A stretch of 64,000 nt of DNA from IMG/VR virus record IMGVR_UViG_3300036766_000359, positions 64,001-128,000 of that record. One strand, given 5' to 3'. Of the stretch, positions 4,474-39,371 are shown piece after piece (within the stretch, counting starts at the first letter, position 1; every line of letters starts with the position of its first letter). Source of the DNA: a virus. A program made the position numbers and the translations under genes. The notes beneath the pieces were generated by a model, which did not search any database, was not told the origin of the DNA, and saw only the letters and a list, made by a program, of their open reading frames with translations.

Positions 4474-6324
4474 TCAACTGTCTACAGGTCTACGAAAACA
4501 GAATTTCTTTTTCTCTTTACCAAAAATCTTCACATATCCATGTTCGGAAGCATATTCCGACTCAGTCGAACCATGACGTGAAGCGTGACCATATAAAGTT
4601 TTCTTATGTATGACAAAGCCATCTTGATTTATATAATGATAATCTGAAGGGACAATGTGCATCTCTTCCCAATTGGAAGCGAGATATATAGTTCCAGTAT
4701 GCCCAAAAGTCGAATCAGAAAAACTGATTAAAGTTAAAACCCCTGGGTAATTCGCGAAAACTTTCTTGGAACATCTTGATATCATCCAAGACGCAAAGTT
4801 TTTCTTTTGATAACTTGGATGAATACAAAATCGATCAAGTTCTAATACCTGACTCTGACTGAAACCCATCGAAGTAGCAGATTCCTTCCTGACAGGAGGG
4901 CAAAATTTACAAACAGCAATTAAGTTATTCCCAAAATACGCACCATAAACAGATTTAGCGGCACGACCATATCCAGAATAGTGGAAACTTTGCAAAAACT
5001 CTTCCGGAGGAGAATAATATGAATTAGGTAAAATGTTTCTAATGTCAATTTTTTCAATAACTATATCGTCGAATGAAAAATCATTCTGGTTATCTTCTTC
5101 CTCATTAAAGAGGGCACGAACCAATTTTTGCCGAATGAGACCAGGGTTCAAGAAATCACGTTCCCAAAGGTACATGATTTTTAAATCAGAAAAGTATTTA
5201 TCAATGTACGTAAATTTCGAGGCGTCAGCACTCTTCCGAAGAGAGTGCCAGTATTCACCGTTACATTCGATCAGAAGGTTATGCGACGGAATGAATAAGT
5301 CAAATTCGAAATATCCAAGTACATGGTGACGAATATATTTAATATTAAGAGCATCAAGAAGAGTTTGAGTCGTTCGTTCGAGAATGCTGTCTTTACCATT
5401 GGAAAGAATTTCAGAACGAGCGACGGCTTGTCTCTTCCTATACTCGTCGTCCTGCCAACGAGCTTTACTGGCAACTGATATGGCTTCCCTATATGCAGGA
5501 TTAAGGAAAGCTTTATGTAATCCATCAAGAAGACACTTCCTGGATTTTGGGTCTGCCCACTGACGAGTTGCGTTATCCGACTTTAAGCGAAGAAGATCAG
5601 GGTCTTCGTTTGCTTTCTTTATTTTTTCTCGATATTCAGGGTCTTCCAAAAATGATTTGGCTCTATCGGATGCTTCTTTAATGGCAACGTCATTACCTTT
5701 CCAAAACAAAGCAATGGAATCAATTACACTGCTACGGTATTCATCATTATTCCATCTTTCAATAGCAAGAGTCCGTTGTAGTTCAACGTGTTTATCTGAT
5801 GCTTTAACATCAAGTTGACGTTTCACATACTCAGGGTCTAACCACATAGACTTAGCGCGTTCAGAACGAGCGTCACGTTCGTTCTGATCAACTTTTTGGT
5901 TATCACGAAATTCTTCTGTTTTCCACAGTTCAGTAGTTCTTATGGAGGCTTCATTCCTGATCTGAGGGTTACTCCACGTCTTTGTCGAAGATTCCGTAAT
6001 CTTCTTACGAAATAAATCATTTGCCCATAAATTTTTGGAAATGTCCGACTGTTGAGAGCAACGATCATCGGACCACGATTTTCTGACACCTGCGGATATG
6101 GAGGCAAGATAACCAGGGTCCAGACTTTTCTCTTTCACACCACAAGAAAGACATCTATACTTACCAACACGCTTAATAGTGCGAAGTAAAGATGCGATTT
6201 TTATCTGGACTTCAGCACCACACTCACATAGCGCCGTAACGACTGACTGATTCGTTAACCGACCGTATTCACCTTTAACAAACGACTGGGAGATTTTGAA
6301 TCGTTCAAGGTCAGGATGGGTCAT
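4474..6324 (-). CDS. Homing-endonuclease-like fusion: Zn ribbon + NUMOD3-like helical repeats + DUF559/Vsr-type nuclease + C-terminal Hef/Mom-like GNAT domain
   Basis: CECG...CLSCG; repeated K..W.D.EYR helices; FEFDLFIPSHNLLIECNGEYWHS; ELDRFCIHP...LISFSDSTFGHTGTIYLASNW. Confidence 0.7.
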   Translation of the reverse strand: MTHPDLERFKISQSFVKGEYGRLTNQSVVTALCECGAEVQIKIASLLRTIKRVGKYRCLSCGVKEKSLDPGYLASISAGVRKSWSDDRCSQQSDISKNLWANDLFRKKITESSTKTWSNPQIRNEASIRTTELWKTEEFRDNQKVDQNERDARSERAKSMWLDPEYVKRQLDVKASDKHVELQRTLAIERWNNDEYRSSVIDSIALFWKGNDVAIKEASDRAKSFLEDPEYREKIKKANEDPDLLRLKSDNATRQWADPKSRKCLLDGLHKAFLNPAYREAISVASKARWQDDEYRKRQAVARSEILSNGKDSILERTTQTLLDALNIKYIRHHVLGYFEFDLFIPSHNLLIECNGEYWHSLRKSADASKFTYIDKYFSDLKIMYLWERDFLNPGLIRQKLVRALFNEEEDNQNDFSFDDIVIEKIDIRNILPNSYYSPPEEFLQSFHYSGYGRAAKSVYGAYFGNNLIAVCKFCPPVRKESATSMGFSQSQVLELDRFCIHPSYQKKNFASWMISRCSKKVFANYPGVLTLISFSDSTFGHTGTIYLASNWEEMHIVPSDYHYINQDGFVIHKKTLYGHASRHGSTESEYASEHGYVKIFGKEKKKFCFRRPVDS

Positions 6325-20532: not shown

Positions 20533-21336
20533 TCAAGAAGCGATAGAATTAATCATTTGGTTTAAGTCATTCTCGGAAATTATATGAACACCGTGTTTCT
20601 TAGCATTTTGCATCTTAGAGCTAGTGGTGTCTAAACTATTCGTTACAAGGAATGAAAGGCCGGAACCAACGGAACTCTTAGCAACACCGCCAGCCTCCAT
20701 GATTAGTTTCTCGAGGGCTTTCCTAGGTTTTGAAGTTGAACCAGTTATGCAAAATGACTTACCGGCAAGTGGCCCGCCAGATGGCTTCTGAATATCGAGA
20801 ACCTCAGTCAACTCCAGTATAACACATCGACGTTCCTGGATGCCATCGAATACTTGTCTGGCAGTCACTTCACCAACATTTGGTACCTTTAAAAGGTCTT
20901 CATACGTAAGAGAAAGACATTTCTCAACCGTGTCATATCCCGCCTGGACAATATCGGTAGCTGTAGCAAGTGCAAAATTTGGGATGTTAAGCGAAGCGAG
21001 GAGAAGTTCAAGAGGGATTTTCTTCCCAGCATGAAGAACTTCATAACACTTCTGAGCCATCTTCTGACCTGAAGTACATGGTATCAGGTCATCGATCGTA
21101 AGCCTGTATAGGTCCGCAATCGACTGTATTCGTGGATCGTCCGGATCAGTAAGCTGGTCCACAAGGGCTTCTCCCCAATGAAGAAGCCCGAGTCTTTTGA
21201 TCCAAACTTTCACGGACCCAGCAAGTTTTGCGGGGCAAGATTTACTTCGACACCAAAGAAAGAAGCCTTCAGCGGATGTAGGTCCGTTACATACAGGGCA
21301 GAAATCTGGAATTTTGAAGTTGTCCTGGTTTCCCAT
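20533..21336 (-). CDS. ligA: NAD+-dependent DNA ligase, C-terminal subunit (Zn finger + HhH + BRCT)
   Basis: IPDFCPVCNG...CRSKSCPAKL; HhH motifs (KVPNVGEVTA); BRCT LAGKSFCITGS...SSKMQNAKKHGVHIISE. Confidence 0.88.
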   Translation of the reverse strand: MGNQDNFKIPDFCPVCNGPTSAEGFFLWCRSKSCPAKLAGSVKVWIKRLGLLHWGEALVDQLTDPDDPRIQSIADLYRLTIDDLIPCTSGQKMAQKCYEVLHAGKKIPLELLLASLNIPNFALATATDIVQAGYDTVEKCLSLTYEDLLKVPNVGEVTARQVFDGIQERRCVILELTEVLDIQKPSGGPLAGKSFCITGSTSKPRKALEKLIMEAGGVAKSSVGSGLSFLVTNSLDTTSSKMQNAKKHGVHIISENDLNQMINSIAS

Positions 21337-22261: not shown

Positions 22262-23377
22262 ATGACAAAAGACATTAACGAATTAAAATCAAATCTAAAG
22301 AGATGGCGCGAAGCATATTATAATCTTATACCGATCGTATCTGACCAAGAGTTCGATGCAGCAAAAGACGAACTTTCCAGGTTATCTCCCGACGACGAAG
22401 AGGTGATGGCTATCGGGGCAGCACCATCGCAAATATCAGTTTGGCAAAAAGTCCGTCACGAGATTCCGATGGGGTCACTCGCAAAAGCAAACTCCGAAAA
22501 AGAACTAGATGAGTGGGTGTCAAAGACACAAAATGTTGGGTCATGGGTCATCACCCATAAAATTGACGGGTCATCAATGGAACTCGTCTATCAAGAAGGT
22601 AGGTTAGTAAGATGCGTCACGCGAGGTGACGGAGTAATCGGTGAAGACGTGACGTCGAATATATCGAAAGTACCATCGGTACCAAGCTCTTTAAAAAATC
22701 CGATAAATATGATAGTCCGTGGCGAAATCGTGATGATGAAAGACGTCTTCACGAAAAAGTATGCAGAAGAATATGCCAATCCGCGCAATACAGCGGCTGG
22801 AAAAGTACGAGAGAAGAAAGGCGAGGGAGAAGCATGTAGAGACTTAGAGTTCCTCGCTTATTGGGTTCATTTTGAGAAGTCTGAGCAGCCAGAAACACTG
22901 TTTTTAGCAATGGGACTACTTGATGAAAATGGTTTCAAAACTCCGCCGTTCACGAAAAGTAAAGAAATAGACTCCATAAAGAAAATATATACTCATGAAG
23001 CTTCAAGAAGAGACGAGATTCCATATGAAATAGATGGTATGGTAATCTCAATCGATGATCTTAGCGTCATCGAAGAAATGGGGTCTATTAACGGACGTCC
23101 ACGAGGTCAAATAGCGTGGAAGTTTGACCCGGCAATGCGAGAAACTAGGATAATAGACGTGAAGTGGCAAGTCGGAAATTCAGGCCGGATTACGCCTGTG
23201 GCTGTAGTGGAACCAGTAGATGTAGGAGGCGTTACAATCACGAATGTGTCCCTCCATAATTTGTCGTTATTTCACGATCTTAAACTAAATCAGGGAAATC
23301 GAGTACTCGTGTCACGTCGCAATGACGTAATACCTTACTTGGAACGAGTTTTGAAAGACGACATTTCGGATACTTAA
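22262..23377 (+). CDS. ligA: NAD+-dependent DNA ligase, N-terminal subunit (Ia + adenylation + OB domains)
   Basis: YYN..P.VSDQEFD; PMGSL; active-site KIDG; TRGDG..GEDVT; ANPRNTAAG; YEIDGMV; AWKF; VGNSGRITPVA; ends RRNDVIPYLERV. Confidence 0.92.
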   Translation: MTKDINELKSNLKRWREAYYNLIPIVSDQEFDAAKDELSRLSPDDEEVMAIGAAPSQISVWQKVRHEIPMGSLAKANSEKELDEWVSKTQNVGSWVITHKIDGSSMELVYQEGRLVRCVTRGDGVIGEDVTSNISKVPSVPSSLKNPINMIVRGEIVMMKDVFTKKYAEEYANPRNTAAGKVREKKGEGEACRDLEFLAYWVHFEKSEQPETLFLAMGLLDENGFKTPPFTKSKEIDSIKKIYTHEASRRDEIPYEIDGMVISIDDLSVIEEMGSINGRPRGQIAWKFDPAMRETRIIDVKWQVGNSGRITPVAVVEPVDVGGVTITNVSLHNLSLFHDLKLNQGNRVLVSRRNDVIPYLERVLKDDISDT

Positions 23378-24516: not shown

Positions 24517-27372
24517 CTACGAACATCCTGTCGTCGTACCACAAGATGAACATAGATAACACGAACCATTGCGTTGAGTCATGTTACCACATCGAGTGCA
24601 AGGCGGACCACCAAGATTCTTACGTGCTGGTTTAATCGGGATAGCGGAAGAAGGTGAGGGAATAATTGAACGAAAGACATCAGAATCAGGATCTTTGGAA
24701 ATACTTTCATTAATGTCTTCATGAGAATCATCAACGGTTCGTGTTAAGCCAGAGTACTCACCACCGTAATAATGGACATCGAGAACCTTGAACATGTAAT
24801 CATACAAACTCTTGGCAAACCGAACGTTCTTGTTTGTCGTTATGCCGGAAGGTTCAAATCGAGTATCGATGAAACTAATTATCAATTTTGGAAGCGGAAT
24901 TCCATACTGAATGGCAATAGAACAAAGTTGAGTAAAACCATCAATAAGACCAGAAACGGTGCTTCCTGGTTTACCGAGTTTAAGAAAGATCTCACCAGGA
25001 CGACCATCGGGATACTCACTAACTATGAGATATCCTTTATAACCATCAATTTCAAATTTATGACGCCAACTTTTAACATCTGACGGCATTTTCTCACGAT
25101 AGACGACAGGTACTTCTCGGATTACTTCTTGGATCCTAACTTCAGCCTCTTTCAAAGCTGCTTGTATTACAGGATCTTTAGCTTCCTTCGTAACGAGAGG
25201 CTGAGACGCCTTACACTTGTCACGATATAAGGCAATGCACTTTAATCCGAGACGCCATGATTCTTCATAAATTTTGGCGATCTCGTCTGAAGTGACGCCT
25301 TCAGGAAGATTAACTGTCTTACTCATTGCACATGTGATGAGAGGCTGTATTGCCGCCATCATCTTAATATGTGCCATTGGCGATAAATAACGTCCGGAGT
25401 CACCAGAAGGCATCGCGGTGTCAAAAACTGGAAGGTGTTCATCTTTCAGTCCAGGAGCACCATCAATCGTATCATGAGATTCAACGTACTTACATATCTC
25501 ATCAACTTCATCTTTTGAATAACCGAGATTAACGAGTGCCTCGCGAACTCCAAAGTTCACGAGCTTCATCACGCCGCCACCGACGAGAGACTTATATGAA
25601 ACAAGAGAGAAAGCCGGTTCAATGCCGGTCGTGTTCATACCCATCAAGAACGAGATTGTCCCAAGTGGCGCTTGAAGGGTAGCTTGTGAAACATTATACC
25701 CATACTTCTCACCAAGAGATATAGATTCACGCCAAATATCAGCAGACAAAGATGCTATATCATCACTGATTGGATCTTTTGAAAGATGCCAACGTTCAGT
25801 GATCTTCGTGTCTGCTTCCTGATGCATTCGCATGACACGAAGCATATCATCACGGTTCTTTTCATATTCTGAAAAAGTTCCGATTCGAGCTGCCATTTTT
25901 GACGAAGTTAAATATACGACTCCAGTCATGAGTGATGCCATTCGAGCTGCAATGGCACGACCTTCATCTGAATCGTAACCATAACCAAGATTCATTATTA
26001 GGGCACCAAGGTCACCATAGTTAGACCCGATCGGACGAAGTTTGTGTGAGTTAGAAGTTATCTCATCGGTCGGATAAGAAGCCTTCGCTATGATGGCCAT
26101 TTGTGATGTGCTAAAGATCCTGGTAGCCTGAATGAATCTATCAGCAACAAACTTACGACCGTCAAAAAACTTCGTCAAATTAATCGCGCAAAGATTACAA
26201 GCGGTGTTATCAATATGGAGGAATTCAGCGCACGGATTTGAGGCACGAATGCGACCACTCTTTGGTGTAGTGTGCCATTTGTTTATATTATCAGAAAACT
26301 GGATACCTGGGTCACCACATTTCCAAGCAGCGTCGGCAATTTCATGCCAAAGCATGCGAGCATTGTAGTTGTGAACTATCTTCCCGCCCTTACGTTCGCG
26401 GGTTTGCCAGGTCCCATCATCAAGCATGGATTGCATGAATGCATCAGGAACAGAAACTGAGTGATTAGCATTCTGGTACGGAACGATCTTATACGCACCA
26501 TTCGGGTTGTCGTATTCAGATGAATAACCAATCGATACAAGATCGTGAGCTAACTTTTCCGCCCAAGATTTGCATGAAATAAAACCAGGGCGACCATCAC
26601 GAGTTTCAAGAATGTCAGGATGGTCCATATCCATCACGACCATCTTGGCTGCATTTCTTGTAGCTCCACCAGATTTCATGGAACCGGCATAAGCGTTGTT
26701 ACCTTGCATCCAAGACATCGGGCCGGAAGTGTACGAACCTGCAGAAATTTTTTCATAAGAAGACCTGAGGTTTGATAAATTTGCCCCAGACCCTGATCCA
26801 CCACGAAAAATTGCAAGCTCAGACGCTTGAAAATGCATTATATCGTCAAGAGAGTCTTCAATGCCGGATATGAAACATGCGGAAGCAGTTTGCTCTCGCC
26901 CATCAATTCCGAGATTAAACCAAACAGGAGAATTGAAAGCTCCGTACTGATGCAATAACGCGTAAATGAGCTCTTCTTCAAAAACCTGTTTGTCTTGAAC
27001 AGTATTGAAAAATTTTTGATCAGAAGCCCAGTCACGAATCGTAGAACAAACGCGAGTGAATATCTGTTTTACAGAATTCTCACGTACACCACCAACGACA
27101 CGAAAATACTTATCTGCGACAACATTAACATTATTTTGGGTCCACCAAGCAGGGACCTCGATATCTTTTTGTTCAAAAATTATTTCGCCTTTACCGCTTC
27201 GAATGCAGGCATCAACAATTTTCCATTCAATTTGATCGAATGGATGAATACCTTCAGAGGTAAAAACACGAGGCCAATGTCCGGCTTCACGTGAAACAAT
27301 ATCTTTGCTTGACAACAAAGTCTTGTTAATACTAACAACCTGCGCGTCAGAAGTTACACTAGCGTTCGACAT
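24517..27372 (-). CDS. nrdJ: Class II (adenosylcobalamin-dependent) ribonucleotide reductase
   Basis: FNSPVWFN, SACFI, SNPCAE, APLGTISF..TTGIEP, SKTVNLP; C-terminal TSCPD region and Zn ribbon CTRCG...CYLCSSCG. Confidence 0.95.
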   Translation of the reverse strand: MSNASVTSDAQVVSINKTLLSSKDIVSREAGHWPRVFTSEGIHPFDQIEWKIVDACIRSGKGEIIFEQKDIEVPAWWTQNNVNVVADKYFRVVGGVRENSVKQIFTRVCSTIRDWASDQKFFNTVQDKQVFEEELIYALLHQYGAFNSPVWFNLGIDGREQTASACFISGIEDSLDDIMHFQASELAIFRGGSGSGANLSNLRSSYEKISAGSYTSGPMSWMQGNNAYAGSMKSGGATRNAAKMVVMDMDHPDILETRDGRPGFISCKSWAEKLAHDLVSIGYSSEYDNPNGAYKIVPYQNANHSVSVPDAFMQSMLDDGTWQTRERKGGKIVHNYNARMLWHEIADAAWKCGDPGIQFSDNINKWHTTPKSGRIRASNPCAEFLHIDNTACNLCAINLTKFFDGRKFVADRFIQATRIFSTSQMAIIAKASYPTDEITSNSHKLRPIGSNYGDLGALIMNLGYGYDSDEGRAIAARMASLMTGVVYLTSSKMAARIGTFSEYEKNRDDMLRVMRMHQEADTKITERWHLSKDPISDDIASLSADIWRESISLGEKYGYNVSQATLQAPLGTISFLMGMNTTGIEPAFSLVSYKSLVGGGVMKLVNFGVREALVNLGYSKDEVDEICKYVESHDTIDGAPGLKDEHLPVFDTAMPSGDSGRYLSPMAHIKMMAAIQPLITCAMSKTVNLPEGVTSDEIAKIYEESWRLGLKCIALYRDKCKASQPLVTKEAKDPVIQAALKEAEVRIQEVIREVPVVYREKMPSDVKSWRHKFEIDGYKGYLIVSEYPDGRPGEIFLKLGKPGSTVSGLIDGFTQLCSIAIQYGIPLPKLIISFIDTRFEPSGITTNKNVRFAKSLYDYMFKVLDVHYYGGEYSGLTRTVDDSHEDINESISKDPDSDVFRSIIPSPSSAIPIKPARKNLGGPPCTRCGNMTQRNGSCYLCSSCGTTTGCS

Positions 27373-27381
27373 GTTACCCCA

Positions 27382-28296
27382 CTATTTAACATTATTTACC
27401 TCTTCTGACATCCGAATAATTTCAGATTCTAATCCAAAACGAGCTGATCCATCACCACGTTTATGCGCGATATCAAGATCACAAAGAGTACCGAGACTGG
27501 TCATAAGAAACTTCGTTGTCCATAAGTCTAGCCTTGTCAATAACAGTTTCTTAAGAATGAATGGATGAACACCAATAGATTTCGCCACGTCTCCAGTAAG
27601 ATTAAGCTCAAATGACTCACGAAGCTTTAGTTGCTGCACTACGTGACGTTGCATGTAAGCGATAATCCATCCGGTTTCATCAGCTCTTTCTTGAAGTTTA
27701 TCCAAATAAGCAATAGCTTTGTGTGTGTGACCGTCACATATGGCGTCAATAATGTCACGCGGGGTAACCTCTGTAGAAAAAACAATGAGAGATCGGGCTT
27801 CATCAGGAGAAACGATAGTACCAGGGGGAACAGATGCGGCAATTTTTTCGATTTCACGATGAAGCTTTCGCAGACACGTTCCTGAGTTCACAAAAAGAGC
27901 ACCCGCAATTCTGTTTAGATTTATGTTGAAAAAATCACCTTCCCTGATGATCCACTTAACGACATCATTATTATCCTGGAATGATTTCAATTTCGGAAAT
28001 ACAAAAGAACGTTTAGCTCGTTTATCTTGAAGGATGCGCTTTCCTGGAGGAGCAACACAGATAATGGTGTCCAATTCAGATCCAGGCAGAACGGGGATAT
28101 CCTTCACCCCCCATAAGATGAAGACACGGGATTTACCAGACATAAACTGAGTTTGAGAGTCATGTATATAAGACTCAAGATCATCTGGAATGTTATACTC
28201 AAAAGTTTCAGAAGCAAGAGACGAAAGCGCTTCCCGCCTCGCCTCCGTTTCCGATAAAAAGTCTTCTTCCCCGCTGATAAGAATTAACGAAGACAT
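27382..28296 (-). CDS. holA: DNA polymerase III delta subunit-like
   Basis: LILISGEEDFL at the N-terminus; L..EIEKIA; C-terminal GVHPFILKKL...LCDLDIAHKRG...LESEIIR. Confidence 0.75.
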   Translation of the reverse strand: MSSLILISGEEDFLSETEARREALSSLASETFEYNIPDDLESYIHDSQTQFMSGKSRVFILWGVKDIPVLPGSELDTIICVAPPGKRILQDKRAKRSFVFPKLKSFQDNNDVVKWIIREGDFFNINLNRIAGALFVNSGTCLRKLHREIEKIAASVPPGTIVSPDEARSLIVFSTEVTPRDIIDAICDGHTHKAIAYLDKLQERADETGWIIAYMQRHVVQQLKLRESFELNLTGDVAKSIGVHPFILKKLLLTRLDLWTTKFLMTSLGTLCDLDIAHKRGDGSARFGLESEIIRMSEEVNNVK

Positions 28297-28306
28297 GAAA
28301 AAGACA

Positions 28307-29116
28307 TTACACTCGAGTATCCGCTATCATTCTTGTCCAGTGAATTTCAGCATTAGCAGAAGTTGAACTAGAAAGAACACTACAAAATTTAAGAATTGGC
28401 AGCGATGCTGAGTGATCATGGAAGAATTGTTTACATGCGTAACGGATAACATGCATTATGGCATCCCTCGTGTCATTATGACCGTTTTCAAGATCGCAAA
28501 TAACCCTAGGTGGTTTAGTCATAATAGATACTTCACGTTTAGCTACGGAAACAATAGAATCATATAACTCGTCAAACCCACCATTTTCTACGATAATACG
28601 GTATAACTCGGGTAATCCCATGGCCATTTTGATGGCCGTGTCGGATACGGGTAAAAGAAGAGAAGATGCATACTCATACATCTCATCTAAGGAAACATGA
28701 TCCCACCTGAGTTCCGATCGAATTCTTGACGCTAGAGCTGGCTGTAAAGCCCCGACATCATAAGCTACGAGAACAATAGAAAGTAAACTCGGAGGGCTTT
28801 CTAGAAGCTTTAAAAGTGCATCCTGTGATGGTTCTGAGAGTCGATCAGCGTTATCAACGAGAATAACTTTCACTGAGCTGCCAACCGGACTCGTCATAGA
28901 AAATTCTACAACCTCACGAGAGCCGTCAACGCCCGGTTCCATTTCAATGAAATCGGCCTCATGAAGTTCATTCCGATATAATTCTACGGCGACCGATTTC
29001 TGACCAAGAAATCGGTCGCCAACAAGAGCAACAACCGTCGATCGGTGTCTAGCTAGTTGGGTCGGAATCGTTAGATCCCGAAGCGAGGATTGGAGTTTCT
29101 GGTTCCCAGGTATCAT
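28307..29116 (-). CDS. holB: DNA polymerase III delta-prime subunit-like
   Basis: Degenerate Walker A (GDRFLGQKSVA); KVILVDNADRL..PSQDALLKLLESPP; LASRI. Confidence 0.8.
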   Translation of the reverse strand: MIPGNQKLQSSLRDLTIPTQLARHRSTVVALVGDRFLGQKSVAVELYRNELHEADFIEMEPGVDGSREVVEFSMTSPVGSSVKVILVDNADRLSEPSQDALLKLLESPPSLLSIVLVAYDVGALQPALASRIRSELRWDHVSLDEMYEYASSLLLPVSDTAIKMAMGLPELYRIIVENGGFDELYDSIVSVAKREVSIMTKPPRVICDLENGHNDTRDAIMHVIRYACKQFFHDHSASLPILKFCSVLSSSTSANAEIHWTRMIADTRV

Positions 29117-33897: not shown

Positions 33898-34629
33898 ATG
33901 AAACCAAGAAAAACGAAAAAAGCTCCCACCACTCCAAGTGACGATGAATTCAAAGAAGCTGTAGATAAATGCGTCAAAAGAATTGCTGGACCGAAAGAAG
34001 CTGAGTACCTACAAGTATGGCTTTTAGAAGTTGTTAAAAATAATGCGATTCCGGTAAGTCTTCTAGAATTCATACCAATGCCAGCAGCAGAAGTTGGAAA
34101 AACCAGATTTGATCAAATCTACGATGCCGCTATGTCATTAGTATTCCCAGGGTATTCTCAATCAACCTCAGAAAAACTTTTAGGTCCTGCACCAAAGAAA
34201 AATATGAAGATATGGAGGATAATACTACCTGAAAAATTCAAGATAACGCACGTACTTATCCGTGCGATTAGTTTTCAACAGGCATTTGCTCTCGGGTGCG
34301 ACTACGCGTGTCGAATGTCTTTGCGTTTATACGGGAAAATTCCTGTTGATATGACTATTAGGGTCATATTCATGACTGAAAGATCTCTCAGAAGATATCT
34401 TAACCTCAGGTGGGCAAATCGAACATCACGACGAAGAAAACTAAAACTCGAGGGGAGAGAAATTTCCCACCGACAGTTAAATGGTGTCCGTTTAGTCGCG
34501 CTAGGATCCCCAAAAAGTCATTTATATAGTGTAGCTCGATATTGTGAGAGGAAAGATTTAGATAGGGTTTTGAAAGGAAAAGGTATTTCCAGAGAATCAC
34601 CCGTAGAAGCCGAGTCAGGCAAAAAGTAA
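33898..34629 (+). CDS. Basic hypothetical protein immediately upstream of purZ
   Basis: 243-aa K/R-rich ORF. Confidence 0.7.
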   Translation: MKPRKTKKAPTTPSDDEFKEAVDKCVKRIAGPKEAEYLQVWLLEVVKNNAIPVSLLEFIPMPAAEVGKTRFDQIYDAAMSLVFPGYSQSTSEKLLGPAPKKNMKIWRIILPEKFKITHVLIRAISFQQAFALGCDYACRMSLRLYGKIPVDMTIRVIFMTERSLRRYLNLRWANRTSRRRKLKLEGREISHRQLNGVRLVALGSPKSHLYSVARYCERKDLDRVLKGKGISRESPVEAESGKK

Positions 34630-34672: not shown

Positions 34673-37135
34673 GTGCAGGAAGGGAAGTTGAATATACTAT
34701 TGGACGCATTCTGGGGTTCATCCGGAAAAGGAAAAACATCGTCTTTCCTTGCTGATAAATTTGGTGTTACACGAGTCTCTAGCTCAAATTTCCCAAATGC
34801 CGGTCACTGTTGTGGAGAAGATACATACATAACGACAAATCGTGGTCTCGAAAGATTAGGCGATGTTGTTCGTGCATCTAAATCTAACACATCCATAGTG
34901 AATATGGATGGTTCCTTTGAGTCCGTTTCACATTTTGTGGCAGATGGTATTCGGAAGGTTAACACAATACTATTAAAAAATGGTATTTCCATTGATTGCA
35001 CTGACGTACACCGGTTTTTAGTTTGGAATTCGGAAAAATCTGATGTTGAATGGGTTCGATCTATAGATCTTGATCCTGAAACTCACAGTTTCCTATTTCC
35101 AAAATCTGTAGCCTTCAATGGCGGTAGCCTCTTACCAACTGAGTGGACTTCTGCCGATAAACCAAACAAAACTAAAATTGGATTGCCTTTTTCAGAAGAG
35201 ATGTTTGCTTCTTATCTAGGTCTTCTCGTCGGTGACGGGTACTACGCTCGGAAAACGAATGTGAGTATTGCGTTCCATACAAGCCAAATTGATGTACTCA
35301 ATAAAATTCGGGCCATGTATTCGGAAATGGGCATAACAAATCAAAGTGTTGTTCAAGTAGGTGATAAAGAATGCTTTGTGCTCGACACATCCCAGTGTTC
35401 TGGTTTGATGGAATTGTTTGAACTCGTTAACCTCAAACTTGCGATAAAATCAGAAAAGCAAACACCGAAAAAAATTTTAACTTCAAACGTCAAAATCATG
35501 GGTGCATATCTTAGTGGTCTTTTTGACTCGGACGGATCCGTTAAGTCAGATAGAGTAACATTAAGCAACTGTTCCGAAAGTGTTGTTCGTGATGCACAAG
35601 CCATGCTTCATGTACTCGGCATATCAGGGTTTATTACATTTTATGACGATGATCGTGATGATACACGAATGCGTCAGTGGTGTTTGTCTATCAGTGGGTC
35701 AAGAAATCTTAGTATTTTTCAAGATAAAGTGGGGATGTTGTCCGAGATAAAACAACAAAAACTTCGTGGACTGGTTCAATCAATAAATCACGTTGGACAA
35801 ATCATAAATATCAACTCATCCGTTCGAGTTGAATTACGTAAACGCGGGTTTAAATCCGATTCAGGAAATAAAGGCGTTCGAGAGTCAACAATAGAAAAGC
35901 TTGCAGAATCCGGGTATTCAGGACCGGTTGTTGAATCACTTCGTAAATACCATATTATTCAGATTAAATCGATCGAATTTGAATCTAAAGAAATTGAAGT
36001 ATTTGACCTAACGGTTCCTGGCACACACAGCTATCTCGCTAATGGCTGCGTAGCTCATAATACGGCTACATTTAAGGACGGCACCAAGTTCATAGCGAAA
36101 GCAATTCCAACAGCCGCCATTCTCAAGAAAGTTAAAGGCGTTGGGATGCAGTGTTGGATAACTCCAGGTTCAGGTTTTGCTTGGGCACAGCTTATTAAAG
36201 AATGGGATGAATCTGGGAAACCAGAAATCAATATTCACTCGCGTGCATCAATTGTAACGACAGAGCATAAAGAAAGAGAATCTCAGGGAAACGAGTCAAC
36301 AAAACATATTGCGAGCACGATGCAAGGCTCAGCGGCTGCTATGGTAGACAAAGTCTTACGTAAGGCTGACTGTCAACTCGCAGAAACCACTGAATTGCAT
36401 AAGGTCATTGAGTCATTACGAAATAATGACAAATTGATGAACGAATTTTTCACTAATGATATAACGCAAGAGTTTCTTGAAAAAGTGCATGTAGTTGATG
36501 CTTGGGATTTTAGAAAACTAACTCATCAAGCGTTACATAATGGACATCCGTGGCTCCATGAGGGTTCACAAGGATACGCTTTGTCTATTGATCATGGGTC
36601 CCACTTTCCTTTTTGCACAAGTCGAAACGCTTCGATACAATCTGCGATGGACCATCTAGCCGTACCGCCAAAATTGGTCGGTGACGTTTATTTGAATCTT
36701 CGTACTATGCCGATTCGTGTAGGAAACGTCGTTGAGGACGGAGTTCAAAAGGGATACTCAGGCGATTTTTATCCAGACTGTCATGAAATGACATGGGAAC
36801 AAGTGGCACGAGAAGCAGGAATGCCGGAAGAAGAAGCAAAAAAGCTATCGGAAAGAGAACGAACAACGGTTACTAAAAGAGTTCGTAGAGTGTGTACTTT
36901 TTCGTTTAGTGGATTGAAAGATGCTGTTGCTACAAATGGAGCAACAAAACTCATTGTGAATTTCATTCAGTATATAAACTGGCAAGATGCGGGGCTCATG
37001 GGAGAACAAGACGCTTTCTTGAAGCTATCCAAAAAAAGCCGATCATTTATAGACCAGGTAGAAGAAGTTGCTGGAGTTCCTGTGGTACTTATTGGAACTG
37101 GTGCTTTACATGAGGAAATGATATCGAGAATGTGA
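34673..37135 (+). CDS. purZ: PurZ-type 2-amino-deoxyadenylosuccinate synthetase precursor with intein (402 aa after splicing)
   Basis: GTG start with SD GGAGG; DAFWGSSGKGK, PNAGH|T, IASTMQG, HEGSQGYALSIDHG..PFCTSR, RTMPIRVGN, YSGDFYPD, TTVTKRVRRVCTFS, NGATKLIVNFIQY. Confidence 0.85.
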   Translation: MQEGKLNILLDAFWGSSGKGKTSSFLADKFGVTRVSSSNFPNAGHCCGEDTYITTNRGLERLGDVVRASKSNTSIVNMDGSFESVSHFVADGIRKVNTILLKNGISIDCTDVHRFLVWNSEKSDVEWVRSIDLDPETHSFLFPKSVAFNGGSLLPTEWTSADKPNKTKIGLPFSEEMFASYLGLLVGDGYYARKTNVSIAFHTSQIDVLNKIRAMYSEMGITNQSVVQVGDKECFVLDTSQCSGLMELFELVNLKLAIKSEKQTPKKILTSNVKIMGAYLSGLFDSDGSVKSDRVTLSNCSESVVRDAQAMLHVLGISGFITFYDDDRDDTRMRQWCLSISGSRNLSIFQDKVGMLSEIKQQKLRGLVQSINHVGQIININSSVRVELRKRGFKSDSGNKGVRESTIEKLAESGYSGPVVESLRKYHIIQIKSIEFESKEIEVFDLTVPGTHSYLANGCVAHNTATFKDGTKFIAKAIPTAAILKKVKGVGMQCWITPGSGFAWAQLIKEWDESGKPEINIHSRASIVTTEHKERESQGNESTKHIASTMQGSAAAMVDKVLRKADCQLAETTELHKVIESLRNNDKLMNEFFTNDITQEFLEKVHVVDAWDFRKLTHQALHNGHPWLHEGSQGYALSIDHGSHFPFCTSRNASIQSAMDHLAVPPKLVGDVYLNLRTMPIRVGNVVEDGVQKGYSGDFYPDCHEMTWEQVAREAGMPEEEAKKLSERERTTVTKRVRRVCTFSFSGLKDAVATNGATKLIVNFIQYINWQDAGLMGEQDAFLKLSKKSRSFIDQVEEVAGVPVVLIGTGALHEEMISRM
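34808..36061 (+). mobile_element. Full-length intein with LAGLIDADG homing endonuclease (418 aa)
   Basis: Starts at Cys46 (CCGEDTYI), block B CTDVHRF, endonuclease motifs YLGLLVGDGY and YLSGLFDSDGSV, block F VFDLTV, ends GCVAHN followed by Thr+1. Confidence 0.95.
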
Positions 37136-37144
37136 CCGCAAGAT

Positions 37145-37396
37145 ATGTCAACAAGTAAACTACCAAAGGTGTTTGGCGCTGGTGATGTTACCATATGTGC
37201 AAACCTAGATGGTTTGCGAGTTTATATAGGACATACTGAAATTGAGTACATCAGACGAATAGAAATGAAACTCGAAGATGGAAAAATGTTTTTAGAAGTG
37301 TCATTCTTAATGAGCCATGACCCATCTGTTTCTAAGTCAATAGAAGAAGTGGTAAGAACTGCTAAAACTATTCCTTGGATCAAGATAGTACCTTAG
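37145..37396 (+). CDS. Hypothetical protein directly downstream of purZ
   Basis: 83-aa ORF 9 nt after the purZ stop. Confidence 0.65.
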   Translation: MSTSKLPKVFGAGDVTICANLDGLRVYIGHTEIEYIRRIEMKLEDGKMFLEVSFLMSHDPSVSKSIEEVVRTAKTIPWIKIVP

Positions 37397-37959
37397 CGAG
37401 ATCTCTTACGCTTCAAATGTATGCCGATTTGATCCGGGTTTTTGTTCATGAACTCATAACATGATTGAAAATACCCAATAATTGGCATGGCAGCATCTCT
37501 CTCAACGAGAGATTCGAAAATACTTTTTCCCTCAGTTTCAGACCACATCCACTCTTCTGTAATTGGAGAGTTTGGGGCCATTTGGCTCCATACGTTTCCA
37601 TATGGAAACATCATTAAAATGAATTCTTTTTTGTCAAAGTGTGGATGTGGTAAAGCAGAAAACTCTTCTCTTCTCTTTATCGATAGATAAGTACCGTCAG
37701 GAAGATAAACACCCTCTGGCGTCTTTGTTACCCACCGTTTGATCGACATCCATTTCACTTCAGGGGTTTTAAGACCCATTCTTTTACGACAAGCAAGTGA
37801 ACAGTCGTAAAGTGCCGACGGTGACAATCCGGACTCCCACGGTTTGAATTCTTCGGGGACCCCGCTAAATGAATGAAGAGCCTTAATAAAGGGTACTTTT
37901 ATTAAGGAAACCTGTTGTTGTACTTTTCCTAAGGTCTCTGCATCCATCGAGAACTCCAT
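37393..37959 (-). CDS. Hypothetical protein
   Basis: 188-aa ORF convergent with the purZ unit. Confidence 0.65.
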   Translation of the reverse strand: MEFSMDAETLGKVQQQVSLIKVPFIKALHSFSGVPEEFKPWESGLSPSALYDCSLACRKRMGLKTPEVKWMSIKRWVTKTPEGVYLPDGTYLSIKRREEFSALPHPHFDKKEFILMMFPYGNVWSQMAPNSPITEEWMWSETEGKSIFESLVERDAAMPIIGYFQSCYEFMNKNPDQIGIHLKRKRSR

Positions 37960-38036: not shown

Positions 38037-39371
38037 ATGACTGAACCGAAAGTTTTTTGTCTAGTCGATGAAAATGGTCGACTACTCCCACCGGCAGTTC
38101 AAGCCACGGTTTTAGCTAAATATTCACGGTCCCCGGAATCGGCCCATGAGATTATCAAAAATCTATCTGAAGAAGATGCCGATAAATTCCAGGGAAAATA
38201 TGTTATTGAGTATAACCACTCAAGCGTAGCCGAATTAGCGACAGTCCCAGTATGCTTCGAAGGTGTATCAATCATTGCGTCAAAATTTCTCGAATCCTTT
38301 CAAAGAATGGGGTACTCTGAAAAAAGTACCAGGTATCAAGTTTTCAACCGACATTCATTCATAACTCCTCCGGGAGCTCCGCCAACAATGAAAGAATTTG
38401 CGGCTAGGTTTTATGATGCGTATGAAAAATTATATCCCCGGGTACTCAAACGATGCGCCGAGCTTATGGGGAAAGACCCCAATAAGGAAGACAGAACTGT
38501 AAAAGCTAGAGCATTTGATAACATCCGATATTTGTTACCTTCTGGAACCGGGACTAATCTGGCAGCAGTTGGGTTTTTACGTGATTTTCGTTATATGATT
38601 CAAGAATCAAGAGGACACTCAAATCCAGAAATTAGGTCAATAGGTGACTCCACTCATGCAGCAATATCAGAAATATGTCCCGTGTTGGTTCGAAGCTCGG
38701 AAGCAGATTCTTTTGAACCACGAGTTAAATCGCTCGGGAATTTATCACCAAAATTTAAAATCGATAACCCGTCGTGGTACGTAGATTTATATAAACCTCA
38801 GACACTTGGAAATCCGAATACCATTCAGGAAACTTTTTGCGCTACCATAGCTGATCAATACGGAATGAGTTGGTCTGCTTTCAACAAACTCATGGAAGAA
38901 CGGGGAAAAAGAGCAGTACCGAAAATTTTCCGTTCTGTAAAAATTTCTCTAGATGTCATGATGGACTATGGTGCTTATCGTGATTTGCAGAGACATAGAC
39001 GATGTGAACAGTATTCTGAACCGTTGACTTCAAATTACGGGTACCTAGTCCCGGATGATATTGCTGGAACCGAAATGGAACCAGAGTACAGAACTGCGAT
39101 GGAACAAATTCATTTATATGACGACAATCGCGTGTCGTGTGATTCGGATTTGATGCAATATCTGATACCTCTAGGATACCTACACAGGTCCGTTTTCGAT
39201 ATGGACCTTCAAGAATTATATTATATCTCGGAGTTACGGACACAACCTCAGGGTCATATCTCGTATAGAAGAGTTGCTTACGAGATGGCAAAGGTTGGGT
39301 CGGCTCTATACCCGAATTTGATGAGTTGGTGTAGAGCTACGAATCCTGAAAGTATAGGGGTTCACACTTAA
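38037..39371 (+). CDS. thyX: FAD-dependent thymidylate synthase, tandem-domain type
   Basis: EYNHSSVAE, YSEKSTRY, RYLLP in the N-domain; YRDLQRHRR and ELRTQPQGH..YRRVA in the C-domain. Confidence 0.9.
   Translation: MTEPKVFCLVDENGRLLPPAVQATVLAKYSRSPESAHEIIKNLSEEDADKFQGKYVIEYNHSSVAELATVPVCFEGVSIIASKFLESFQRMGYSEKSTRYQVFNRHSFITPPGAPPTMKEFAARFYDAYEKLYPRVLKRCAELMGKDPNKEDRTVKARAFDNIRYLLPSGTGTNLAAVGFLRDFRYMIQESRGHSNPEIRSIGDSTHAAISEICPVLVRSSEADSFEPRVKSLGNLSPKFKIDNPSWYVDLYKPQTLGNPNTIQETFCATIADQYGMSWSAFNKLMEERGKRAVPKIFRSVKISLDVMMDYGAYRDLQRHRRCEQYSEPLTSNYGYLVPDDIAGTEMEPEYRTAMEQIHLYDDNRVSCDSDLMQYLIPLGYLHRSVFDMDLQELYYISELRTQPQGHISYRRVAYEMAKVGSALYPNLMSWCRATNPESIGVHT

Follow-up and report, generated by a model that had tools for sequence, protein, structure and literature searches.

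The locus described here raises the question of whether a very large phage encodes a synthetase of the PurZ type, which belongs to the pathway for 2-aminoadenine (Z), and whether such a phage replaces the adenine of its genome with Z. The locus lies in a window (the whole stretch of DNA that was analysed, 64,000 nucleotides in length) that covers bases 64001-128000 of the 192,972-bp linear virus record IMGVR_UViG_3300036766_000359 in IMG/VR, which derives from an uncultured phage in sediment. The contig is 45% complete by the estimate of CheckV, and the genome of its source phage is roughly 400 kb in size. Within the window, one open reading frame (ORF) encodes an 820-amino-acid (aa) precursor in which a homologue of adenylosuccinate synthetase is interrupted by an intein (Table 1). 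In the literature searched, natural Z-DNA is described only for siphoviruses and podoviruses of small size, whose purZ-datZ-mazZ-dpoZ clusters are compact, and no mention was found of PurZ together with huge or jumbo phages. The best overall explanation of the findings, and in our view a probable one, is that the spliced protein is a PurZ-type synthase that feeds a Z pathway; the enzyme itself and a possible Z-substituted genome are taken up separately below.

Signature residues of the spliced enzyme

The precursor ORF begins with GTG, at a position where a related allele has ATG, and ends with a stop codon at 37133-37135. Removal of the intein (aa 46-463) joins exteins of 45 and 357 aa into a 402-aa homologue of adenylosuccinate synthetase, the length that had been claimed in an earlier reading of the sequence (hereafter the original prediction), and the Pfam family Adenylsucc_synt matches aa 466-764 of the precursor (2e-27). 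All of the motifs on which that prediction was built, namely GSSGKGK, PNAGHT (parted by the intein between H and T), ASTMQG, EGSQGY, RTMPIRVGN, TTVTKRVRR and NFIQY, are found in the spliced protein, and the 120 closest intein-free relatives, which are 385-423 aa long and 62-74% identical, show little or no variation in them.

Table 1. Features of the synthetase locus and its surroundings, in window coordinates
Feature	Coordinates	Strand	Basis or remark
Precursor of PurZ-type synthetase with one intein, 820 aa	34673..37135	+	ORF, Pfam
N-extein, aa 1-45; P-loop GSSGKGK (Ser16 at the PurA Asp13 position) and PNAGH with catalytic His45	34673..34807	+	motifs
Intein, 418 aa	34808..36061	+	Pfam, NCBIfam, motifs, natural intein-free allele
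LAGLIDADG homing-endonuclease core within the intein; LLVGDG at aa 184, LFDSDG at aa 283	35222..35734	+	Pfam, motifs
C-extein, 357 aa and stop; STMQG, EGSQG, PIRVGN, SG..YPD..TWEQ loop, TTVTKRVRR, NFIQY	36062..37135	+	motifs
Upstream neighbour, 243 aa, no family match	33898..34629	+	same place in 393-kb and 445-kb relatives
ThyX-like thymidylate synthase, 444 aa, two Thy1 stretches	38037..39371	+	about 0.9 kb downstream
Class II ribonucleotide reductase, 951 aa; nucleotide-metabolism/replication module	24517..27372	-	
Two clamp-loader subunits (pol III delta-like and delta'-like)	27382..29116	-	

The residues that separate PurZ from PurA are concentrated in the P-loop, in a loop after the PIRV motif and in the base pocket, and at each of these places the enzyme sides with PurZ. 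Ser16 of GSSGKGK occupies the position of PurA Asp13, a residue that is 99% conserved within the PurA clade containing E. coli PurA (PMC12884076). Serine is found there in all 121 close family members and in all 130 readable sequences among the nearest 150 representatives (drawn from 1,408 homologue hits clustered at 50% identity), and Asp is found in none of them. With the substrate-contact residues of S-2L PurZ as the mapping reference (PMC8342488), S23, R280 and R240/V241 of S-2L correspond to S16, R320 and R264/V265 here, and the TTVT at the tip of the S-2L aspartate loop (Thr at S-2L 273) corresponds to residues 313-316, the TTVTK motif spanning T313-K317. The loop that only PurZ proteins carry after PIRV is also kept, as GYSGDFYPD..TWEQ here and GTSGGHYPD..TWEQ in phage phiVC8; the PurZ-specific insertion as aligned reads GYSGDFYPDCHEMTWEQ in this enzyme and GTSGGHYPDQEELTWEQ in phiVC8. 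Its Tyr and Trp correspond to Y244 and W252 of phiVC8, which a study based on restriction enrichment ranked as the two residues with the strongest association to dZ (bioRxiv 10.1101/2025.10.22.683976).

The base pocket of the spliced protein (N345, F346, Q348 and Y349) aligns with N305, F306 and Q308 of S-2L and with N294, F295, N297 and Y298 of phiVC8, whereas the position of Q348 is occupied by Asp in E. coli PurA and in the PurZ0 proteins of phages Archimedes (D305) and Herb (D324). The claim that Gln, rather than the acidic residue of PurZ0, stands in the C-terminal motif thus holds, and it backs the use of ATP over that of GTP. The S-2L motifs that the prediction had quoted (GSTGKG, TTVTKLPRR and NFAQY) agree with the S-2L record. 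Neither the marks of PurZ0 (an acidic base pocket of the form S/T-M-x-D and a GSEAKG P-loop) nor those of PurA (Asp13 and a T-K-x-D guanine pocket) occur in the spliced protein. The choice of deoxyguanosine monophosphate (dGMP), aspartate and adenosine triphosphate (ATP) or its deoxy form (dATP) as substrates appears quite likely.

Family models, fold and phylogeny

The top NCBIfam model for the precursor is the PurZ model NF038379, with 164 bits (intein included); the same model gives 193 and 195 to P0001 and P0041, two relatives without the intein, and 350 to S-2L PurZ, 397 to phiVC8 PurZ and 325 to PurZ0 of Archimedes. PHROG 1211 (2-aminooxy adenylosuccinate synthetase) is the best PHROG match (1.8e-41). 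An AlphaFold (AF2) model was made for P0001, which is 73% identical to the present protein over the C-extein (predicted local distance difference test score 84), and Foldseek ranks phiVC8 PurZ first (2e-27), S-2L PurZ second (1e-25) and Pyrococcus PurA third (4e-25) against it, with PurZ0 twelfth. In a maximum-likelihood tree of 155 sequences with E. coli PurA as the root, the basal position is taken by the PurZ0 group of actinophages (support 100), the characterised PurZ proteins share with the huge-phage sequences a branch that excludes PurZ0 and E. coli PurA (99), and the query falls in a separate clade of 50 rows (99), beside P0001. Because the tree puts the huge-phage clade between PurZ0 and PurZ, that clade is bracketed by two characterised dGMP-using groups. 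The phylogeny that had been proposed as a check, in which PurA is represented by E. coli only, appears to place the query with PurZ where PurZ0 and PurZ part. Residues, best model, PHROG and fold matches support the prediction that the protein is of the PurZ type and not of the PurA type, and the tree is in line with it. A homologue search that started from Bacillus phage vB_BpsS-140 returned viral-type Ser proteins only, and a search of genomes for the NFxQY pattern recovered no archaeon.

Compared with the PurZ (DgsS) proteins of known structure, from phiVC8 (PDB 6FM1, 6FKO, 6TNH) and S-2L (PDB 7ODX), the enzyme shares the fold, the P-loop Ser, TTVTK, the Arg-Val of PIRV, the SG..YPD..W insertion and the N-F-x-Q/N pocket, yet it is only 25-30% identical to them and about 45-60 aa longer, with a helical insert (roughly aa 150-205) and, ahead of TTVT, an additional 'MPEEEA..' segment; they also lack an intein, and here the gene belongs to a phage of ~400 kb and lies far from any datZ, mazZ or dpoZ. 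The PurZ0 proteins have the P-loop Ser in common with it, but they form their own clade and their sequence match to it is much weaker (4e-9). PurZ0 phages use DutZ and DmtZ, whereas no dUTPase-family gene was found on the contig.

Some of the results weigh against a PurZ assignment. The query and its close relatives score 164-195 bits with NF038379, under its cut-off of 300, and because this curated family threshold is failed the enzyme is filed outside textbook PurZ membership. The archaeal-type PurA model NF003295 follows at 147-169 bits, only about 17 to 27 behind the PurZ model. PurA of Pyrococcus horikoshii (PDB 2D7U, 5K7X) is the best PDB sequence match of the C-extein (1e-22) and a close third by fold, with a template-modelling score of 0.85 and with a C-terminal half and an 'MP.EEA' segment that resemble those of the present enzyme. 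Archaeal PurA is not in the tree, whose root rests on the one long E. coli branch.

The closeness of the archaeal model and the Pyrococcus match also favour a rival explanation, that the gene encodes a viral synthetase of the short archaeal type which, with the lyase PurB that the phage encodes elsewhere on the contig, converts inosine monophosphate (IMP) to adenosine monophosphate (AMP), the two forming an auxiliary metabolic gene pair that boosts adenine nucleotides. PurA and PurB make up the canonical IMP-to-AMP branch, which the phage PurB would serve equally well, and the neighbourhood is one of general nucleotide metabolism, with a ribonucleotide reductase (RNR) and a ThyX-like gene. We nevertheless consider this rival improbable. 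Archaeal PurA has Asp13, a GTP-type pocket and no SG..YPD loop, unlike the enzyme here, in which, as in every readable relative, Asp13 is replaced by Ser, the guanine-specific Asp of the GTP pocket gives way to the adenine-type N-F-x-Q, and the PurZ-only loop is kept. The query, moreover, scores far under the cut-offs of both PurA models (147 against 368 for NF003295; 111 against 396 for the bacterial model TIGR00184, which gives 111-131 bits with the query and its relatives), and three of the five complete relatives keep the synthetase without PurB. Residues, models and fold lend good support to the PurZ-type assignment, and the tree, with E. coli as its only PurA, agrees with it. In our reading the enzyme represents a branch of the PurZ group that is divergent and still uncharacterised, and that is neither PurZ0 nor PurA.

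An intein in the active site

The insertion splits the universal PNAGH-T motif between the catalytic His45 and Thr46. Its residues are those of a class 1 intein (Cys1, block B TDVH at aa 110, a terminal His-Asn and Thr at +1), and it contains two LAGLIDADG motifs; Pfam recognises Intein_splicing (4e-13), LAGLIDADG_3 (3e-15, aa 277-354) and Hom_end (2e-7, aa 264-327), and the NCBIfam model intein_Cterm also matches. A contig from a different sediment run (X10) joins 34808 to 36071 through 8 other bases, reading His-Ser-Ala-Val-Phe, and constitutes an exact intein-free allele from a strain that is roughly 97% identical. The intein boundaries are thereby confirmed in nature, since the X10 allele has exactly those boundaries. 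The residue after the His of NAGH is Thr or Ser in 119 of the 120 intein-free relatives and Cys in the remaining one.

Inteins recur among family members. Lengths of 734-1197 aa are seen in twelve of the 150 representatives, and two insertion sites are used repeatedly, one after NAGH as in the present gene and the other ahead of the Cys in the dGMP-binding motif CTSR; P0124 (1197 aa) has inteins at both. The second site was noted in family members P0121, P0124, P0130, P0144-P0147, P0244 and P0265. The LAGLIDADG inteins of RNR, DnaB and GyrA are likewise of class 1, with a nested endonuclease and a conserved active-site motif as the place of insertion, and intein-free alleles of them coexist in nature; here, unlike in those cases, the host protein is a PurZ-type synthase. 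No description of a PurZ intein was found in the literature searched.

An insertion that parts catalytic His45 from Thr46, and whose splicing is predicted from sequence, could in principle mean that the gene is inactive, either by disabling the enzyme or through loss of splicing. This seems very improbable to us, given that Cys1, TxxH, HN and the +1 Thr are all intact, that the frame is open across 820 aa, that the exteins keep every invariant family residue and that other family members use the same insertion site. We keep to the reading that the gene is active, and the intein would give the enzyme natural on and off states.

A proposed route from dGMP to Z

If the enzyme acts as its residues suggest, the LAGLIDADG intein would splice itself out from between His45 and Thr46, and the precursor would become active only afterwards. 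The mature 402-aa enzyme would then convert dGMP, aspartate and ATP or dATP into N6-succino-2-amino-2'-deoxyadenylate, from which phage or host PurB would remove fumarate to give dZMP, the Z monophosphate; kinases would carry dZMP on to the triphosphate, dZTP, and the phage polymerase would place Z opposite T. Clearance of dATP is plausible by way of a DatZ-like HD protein, a MazG-like pyrophosphatase and a family-A polymerase, the genes for which are present in the other half of the genomes of relatives.

The PurB gene lies outside the window at 179173-180510 of the whole 193-kb contig (G000; locus L146:3174-4511) and scores 429 bits with TIGR00928, above the equivalog cut-off of 326, with the Pfam domains Lyase_1 (2e-45) and ADSL_C (5e-18). 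PurB is found in two of the five complete relatives. The PurB-like genes of cultured phages belong mostly to PurZ0 phages (such as Gordonia Archimedes, Streptomyces Hiyaa and Keanu), so the pairing of synthetase and lyase has a precedent, and together the two phage enzymes would amount to a self-contained two-step module from dGMP to dZMP. The PurB gene is followed by a 460-aa ORF without a family match.

The remaining candidates for a Z pathway come from the five complete IMG/VR relatives, which have terminal repeats and genomes of 362-436 kb. Each of the five has one YfbR-like HD gene (E-values 1e-18 to 1e-25), YfbR-like being the Pfam family of DatZ, together with a MazG-like gene and a family-A polymerase (PolA); the MazG-like gene directly follows the HD gene in the two relatives read for this purpose (G001 and G004), and the HD gene is about 10 kb from that of PolA. 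At the positions that determine DatZ specificity (W20 and I22 in S-2L), the relatives read Y-S, F-S or Y-T, and Y20-S/T22 has been reported as the alternative DatZ type from contigs enriched in dZ. The HD/MazG-like region occupies 93-105 kb of the 393-kb relative G001; it falls in the half that is missing here, because the contig is colinear with G001 only from about 190 kb to the G001 end at 393 kb.

As markers that would by themselves diagnose a Z genome, the HD and MazG-like genes were rejected, similar genes being present in non-Z phages. YfbR-like or dUTPase-family genes adjoin the PurZ-like gene in smaller phages with more distant family members (G013, G027/G028, G030 and G047). Genes of the dUTPase family were not found in the contig or in G001-G004 (362-436 kb), and one or two occur in the more distant PurZ-bearing huge phages G005-G008.

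Restriction-site skew

The composition of the contig offers evidence of another kind. All eight GC-only hexamer palindromes are depleted relative to a Markov expectation (50 observed against 155 expected; mean z -3.8), whereas the 56 A/T-containing hexamer palindromes have a mean z of -0.36 (Mann-Whitney 1e-6 for the difference); the depletion is graded by the number of A/T letters, and it does not extend to GC-only hexamers that are not palindromic. The trend recurs in G001 and in phiVC8, a proven Z-phage. The palindrome skew fits a protection of A/T-containing sites, in line with the finding that resistance to restriction increases with the dZ content of a site (PMC12944874). Among individual sites, GCCGGC and GGCGCC are absent from the contig (about 14 expected of each), CCGCGG occurs once (20 expected), and GCCGGC is absent from G001 as well (36 expected).

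Whether and how far the genome may be Z-substituted

From the relatives and the skew, we put a largely Z-substituted genome at a little better than even. The points that tell against it concern both the helper genes and the skew. Pfam searches of the 193-kb contig found no HD, MazG, DUF550, YfbR-like or dUTPase gene, and tblastn of the contig with DatZ and MazZ of S-2L and phiVC8 and with the HD and MazG-like proteins of the relatives gave nothing; nor does the contig carry a DpoZ homologue, so that the pairing that marks a Z-gene cluster, a dATP-clearing enzyme with a dGTP-to-dGMP enzyme, is absent from it. The helper candidates of the relatives, on which the expectation for this phage is based, are about 200 kb from purZ, and their HD and MazG-like proteins belong to families that are common in non-Z phages too. 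The relatives' PolA was considered as a DpoZ and rejected, with no visible DpoZ affinity. As for the skew, S-2L does not have it, the A/T-containing sites GATC, TTAA, AGTACT and GAGCTC are avoided in the contig too, and the genomes compared (the contig, G001, phiVC8 and S-2L) include no non-Z control.

Some of these points lend themselves to a further alternative, in which the chemistry is of the PurZ type and the genome is not wholly Z: dZ would be incorporated in part, or used in manipulation of the nucleotide pool or in countering host defence, with no Z-selective polymerase and no efficient removal of dATP. The distance of the helper genes from purZ and their weak likeness to DatZ and MazZ, the dissimilarity of PolA to DpoZ and the avoidance of some A/T-containing sites are in its favour, as is a Mom-family domain encoded in the window at 4474-6324, and partial substitution is known in engineered cells (PMC12944874). 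S-2L, however, reaches full substitution with a non-selective polymerase and DatZ (PMC8342488), the DatZ-like HD protein has dZ-associated residues in all five complete relatives, and the graded palindrome pattern fits a broad protection of A/T-containing sites. Partial substitution therefore strikes us as rather unlikely, although less so than the IMP-to-AMP explanation, and extensive replacement of A by Z remains the reading that we prefer.

For the lineage as a whole, opinion is evenly balanced on the wider proposal that these phages of 360-445 kb replicate a ZTGC genome by means of a divergent PurZ, PurB in some of them, a DatZ-like HD protein with Y/F20-S/T22, a MazG-like enzyme, and a divergent family-A polymerase with clamp and clamp loader in place of DpoZ, the key enzyme being a recurrent target of homing inteins. 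Novel in the present case are the intein and its intein-free counterpart found in nature, the PurB gene, the DatZ-like residues and the skew in restriction sites. If the proposal is true, no other known Z-genome would come close to these in size, and hundreds of uncultured giant phages would be added to the Z-DNA world, with a bearing on sequencing bias, on the evasion of restriction and of CRISPR (clustered regularly interspaced short palindromic repeats) defences, and on the pool of enzymes for making Z-DNA. If the clade is active, complete base replacement would be compatible with a tenfold larger genome, a dispersed arrangement of genes and a processive replisome that uses a clamp loader.

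Carriers, neighbourhood and replisome

The synthetase falls in a large clade without characterised members, which is a core gene of phages of 360-445 kb; close relatives of it are found on contigs of up to 445 kb. In the 445-kb relative the synteny is kept across the class II RNR, the two clamp-loader subunits, sigma-like genes, an ORF of 243-249 aa, the synthetase and the double-length ThyX-like gene. Megablast of the 8 kb that surround the gene gave no match in a set of 50,697 phage records. The phage occurs in 24 sequencing runs, each represented by assembled contigs, and no RNA run is among those listed; at least 15 sediment metagenome runs contain it.

The Pol III-type replisome claimed in the original prediction is not supported in that form: the contig has only the clamp-loader subunits and a weak match to the beta clamp, and Pol III alpha was found neither there nor in the five complete relatives. 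The polymerase of those relatives is of family A, roughly 960 aa long with a 3'-5' exonuclease, and is 22-29% identical to the PolA proteins of cultured phages and 36% identical to that of one uncultured 485-kb phage record.

Among the neighbours of the synthetase gene, the small ORFs at 33898-34629, 37145-37396 and 37393-37959 match nothing in PHROGs or Pfam. The ThyX-like protein is about twice the usual length of ThyX, and its position is kept in the 393- and 445-kb relatives; a fused pseudo-dimer is one possible reading of it, a pyrimidine-modifying variant another. The NAD-dependent DNA ligase is apparently split into a 371-aa adenylation/OB part (22262-23377, + strand) and a 267-aa HhH-BRCT protein (20533-21336, - strand).

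More distant homologues, about 40% identical, occur in the chromosomes of Sorangium sp. So ce131 (L012) and Chondromyces apiculatus (L013). In Sorangium the homologue is part of a prophage that also carries an integrase, a 5'-3' exonuclease fused to AAA_24, and ERCC4, and its gene overlaps one of the dUTPase family (253 aa). Membership of the myxobacterial homologues in natural-product clusters was considered and rejected on account of this prophage setting, with its integrase and dUTPase-family gene; the prophage is a candidate temperate Z-phage. In contigs from gut metagenome-assembled genomes labelled 'Clostridia' and 'Muribaculaceae' (L015:6001-7053 and L025:6001-7050), PurZ-like ORFs extend upstream in frame into a NUDIX box (GGKIE..ETQEE), which may represent a NUDIX-PurZ fusion that would supply the nucleoside monophosphate substrate; several such gut contigs (220-430 kb) may themselves be phages.

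The Mom-family domain mentioned above (2e-21) forms the C-terminal part of a 616-aa ORF on the - strand that has no counterpart in G001. Mom is the adenine-N6-modifying enzyme of phage Mu, and the ORF may possibly provide a second DNA modification, or a modification that acts on Z.

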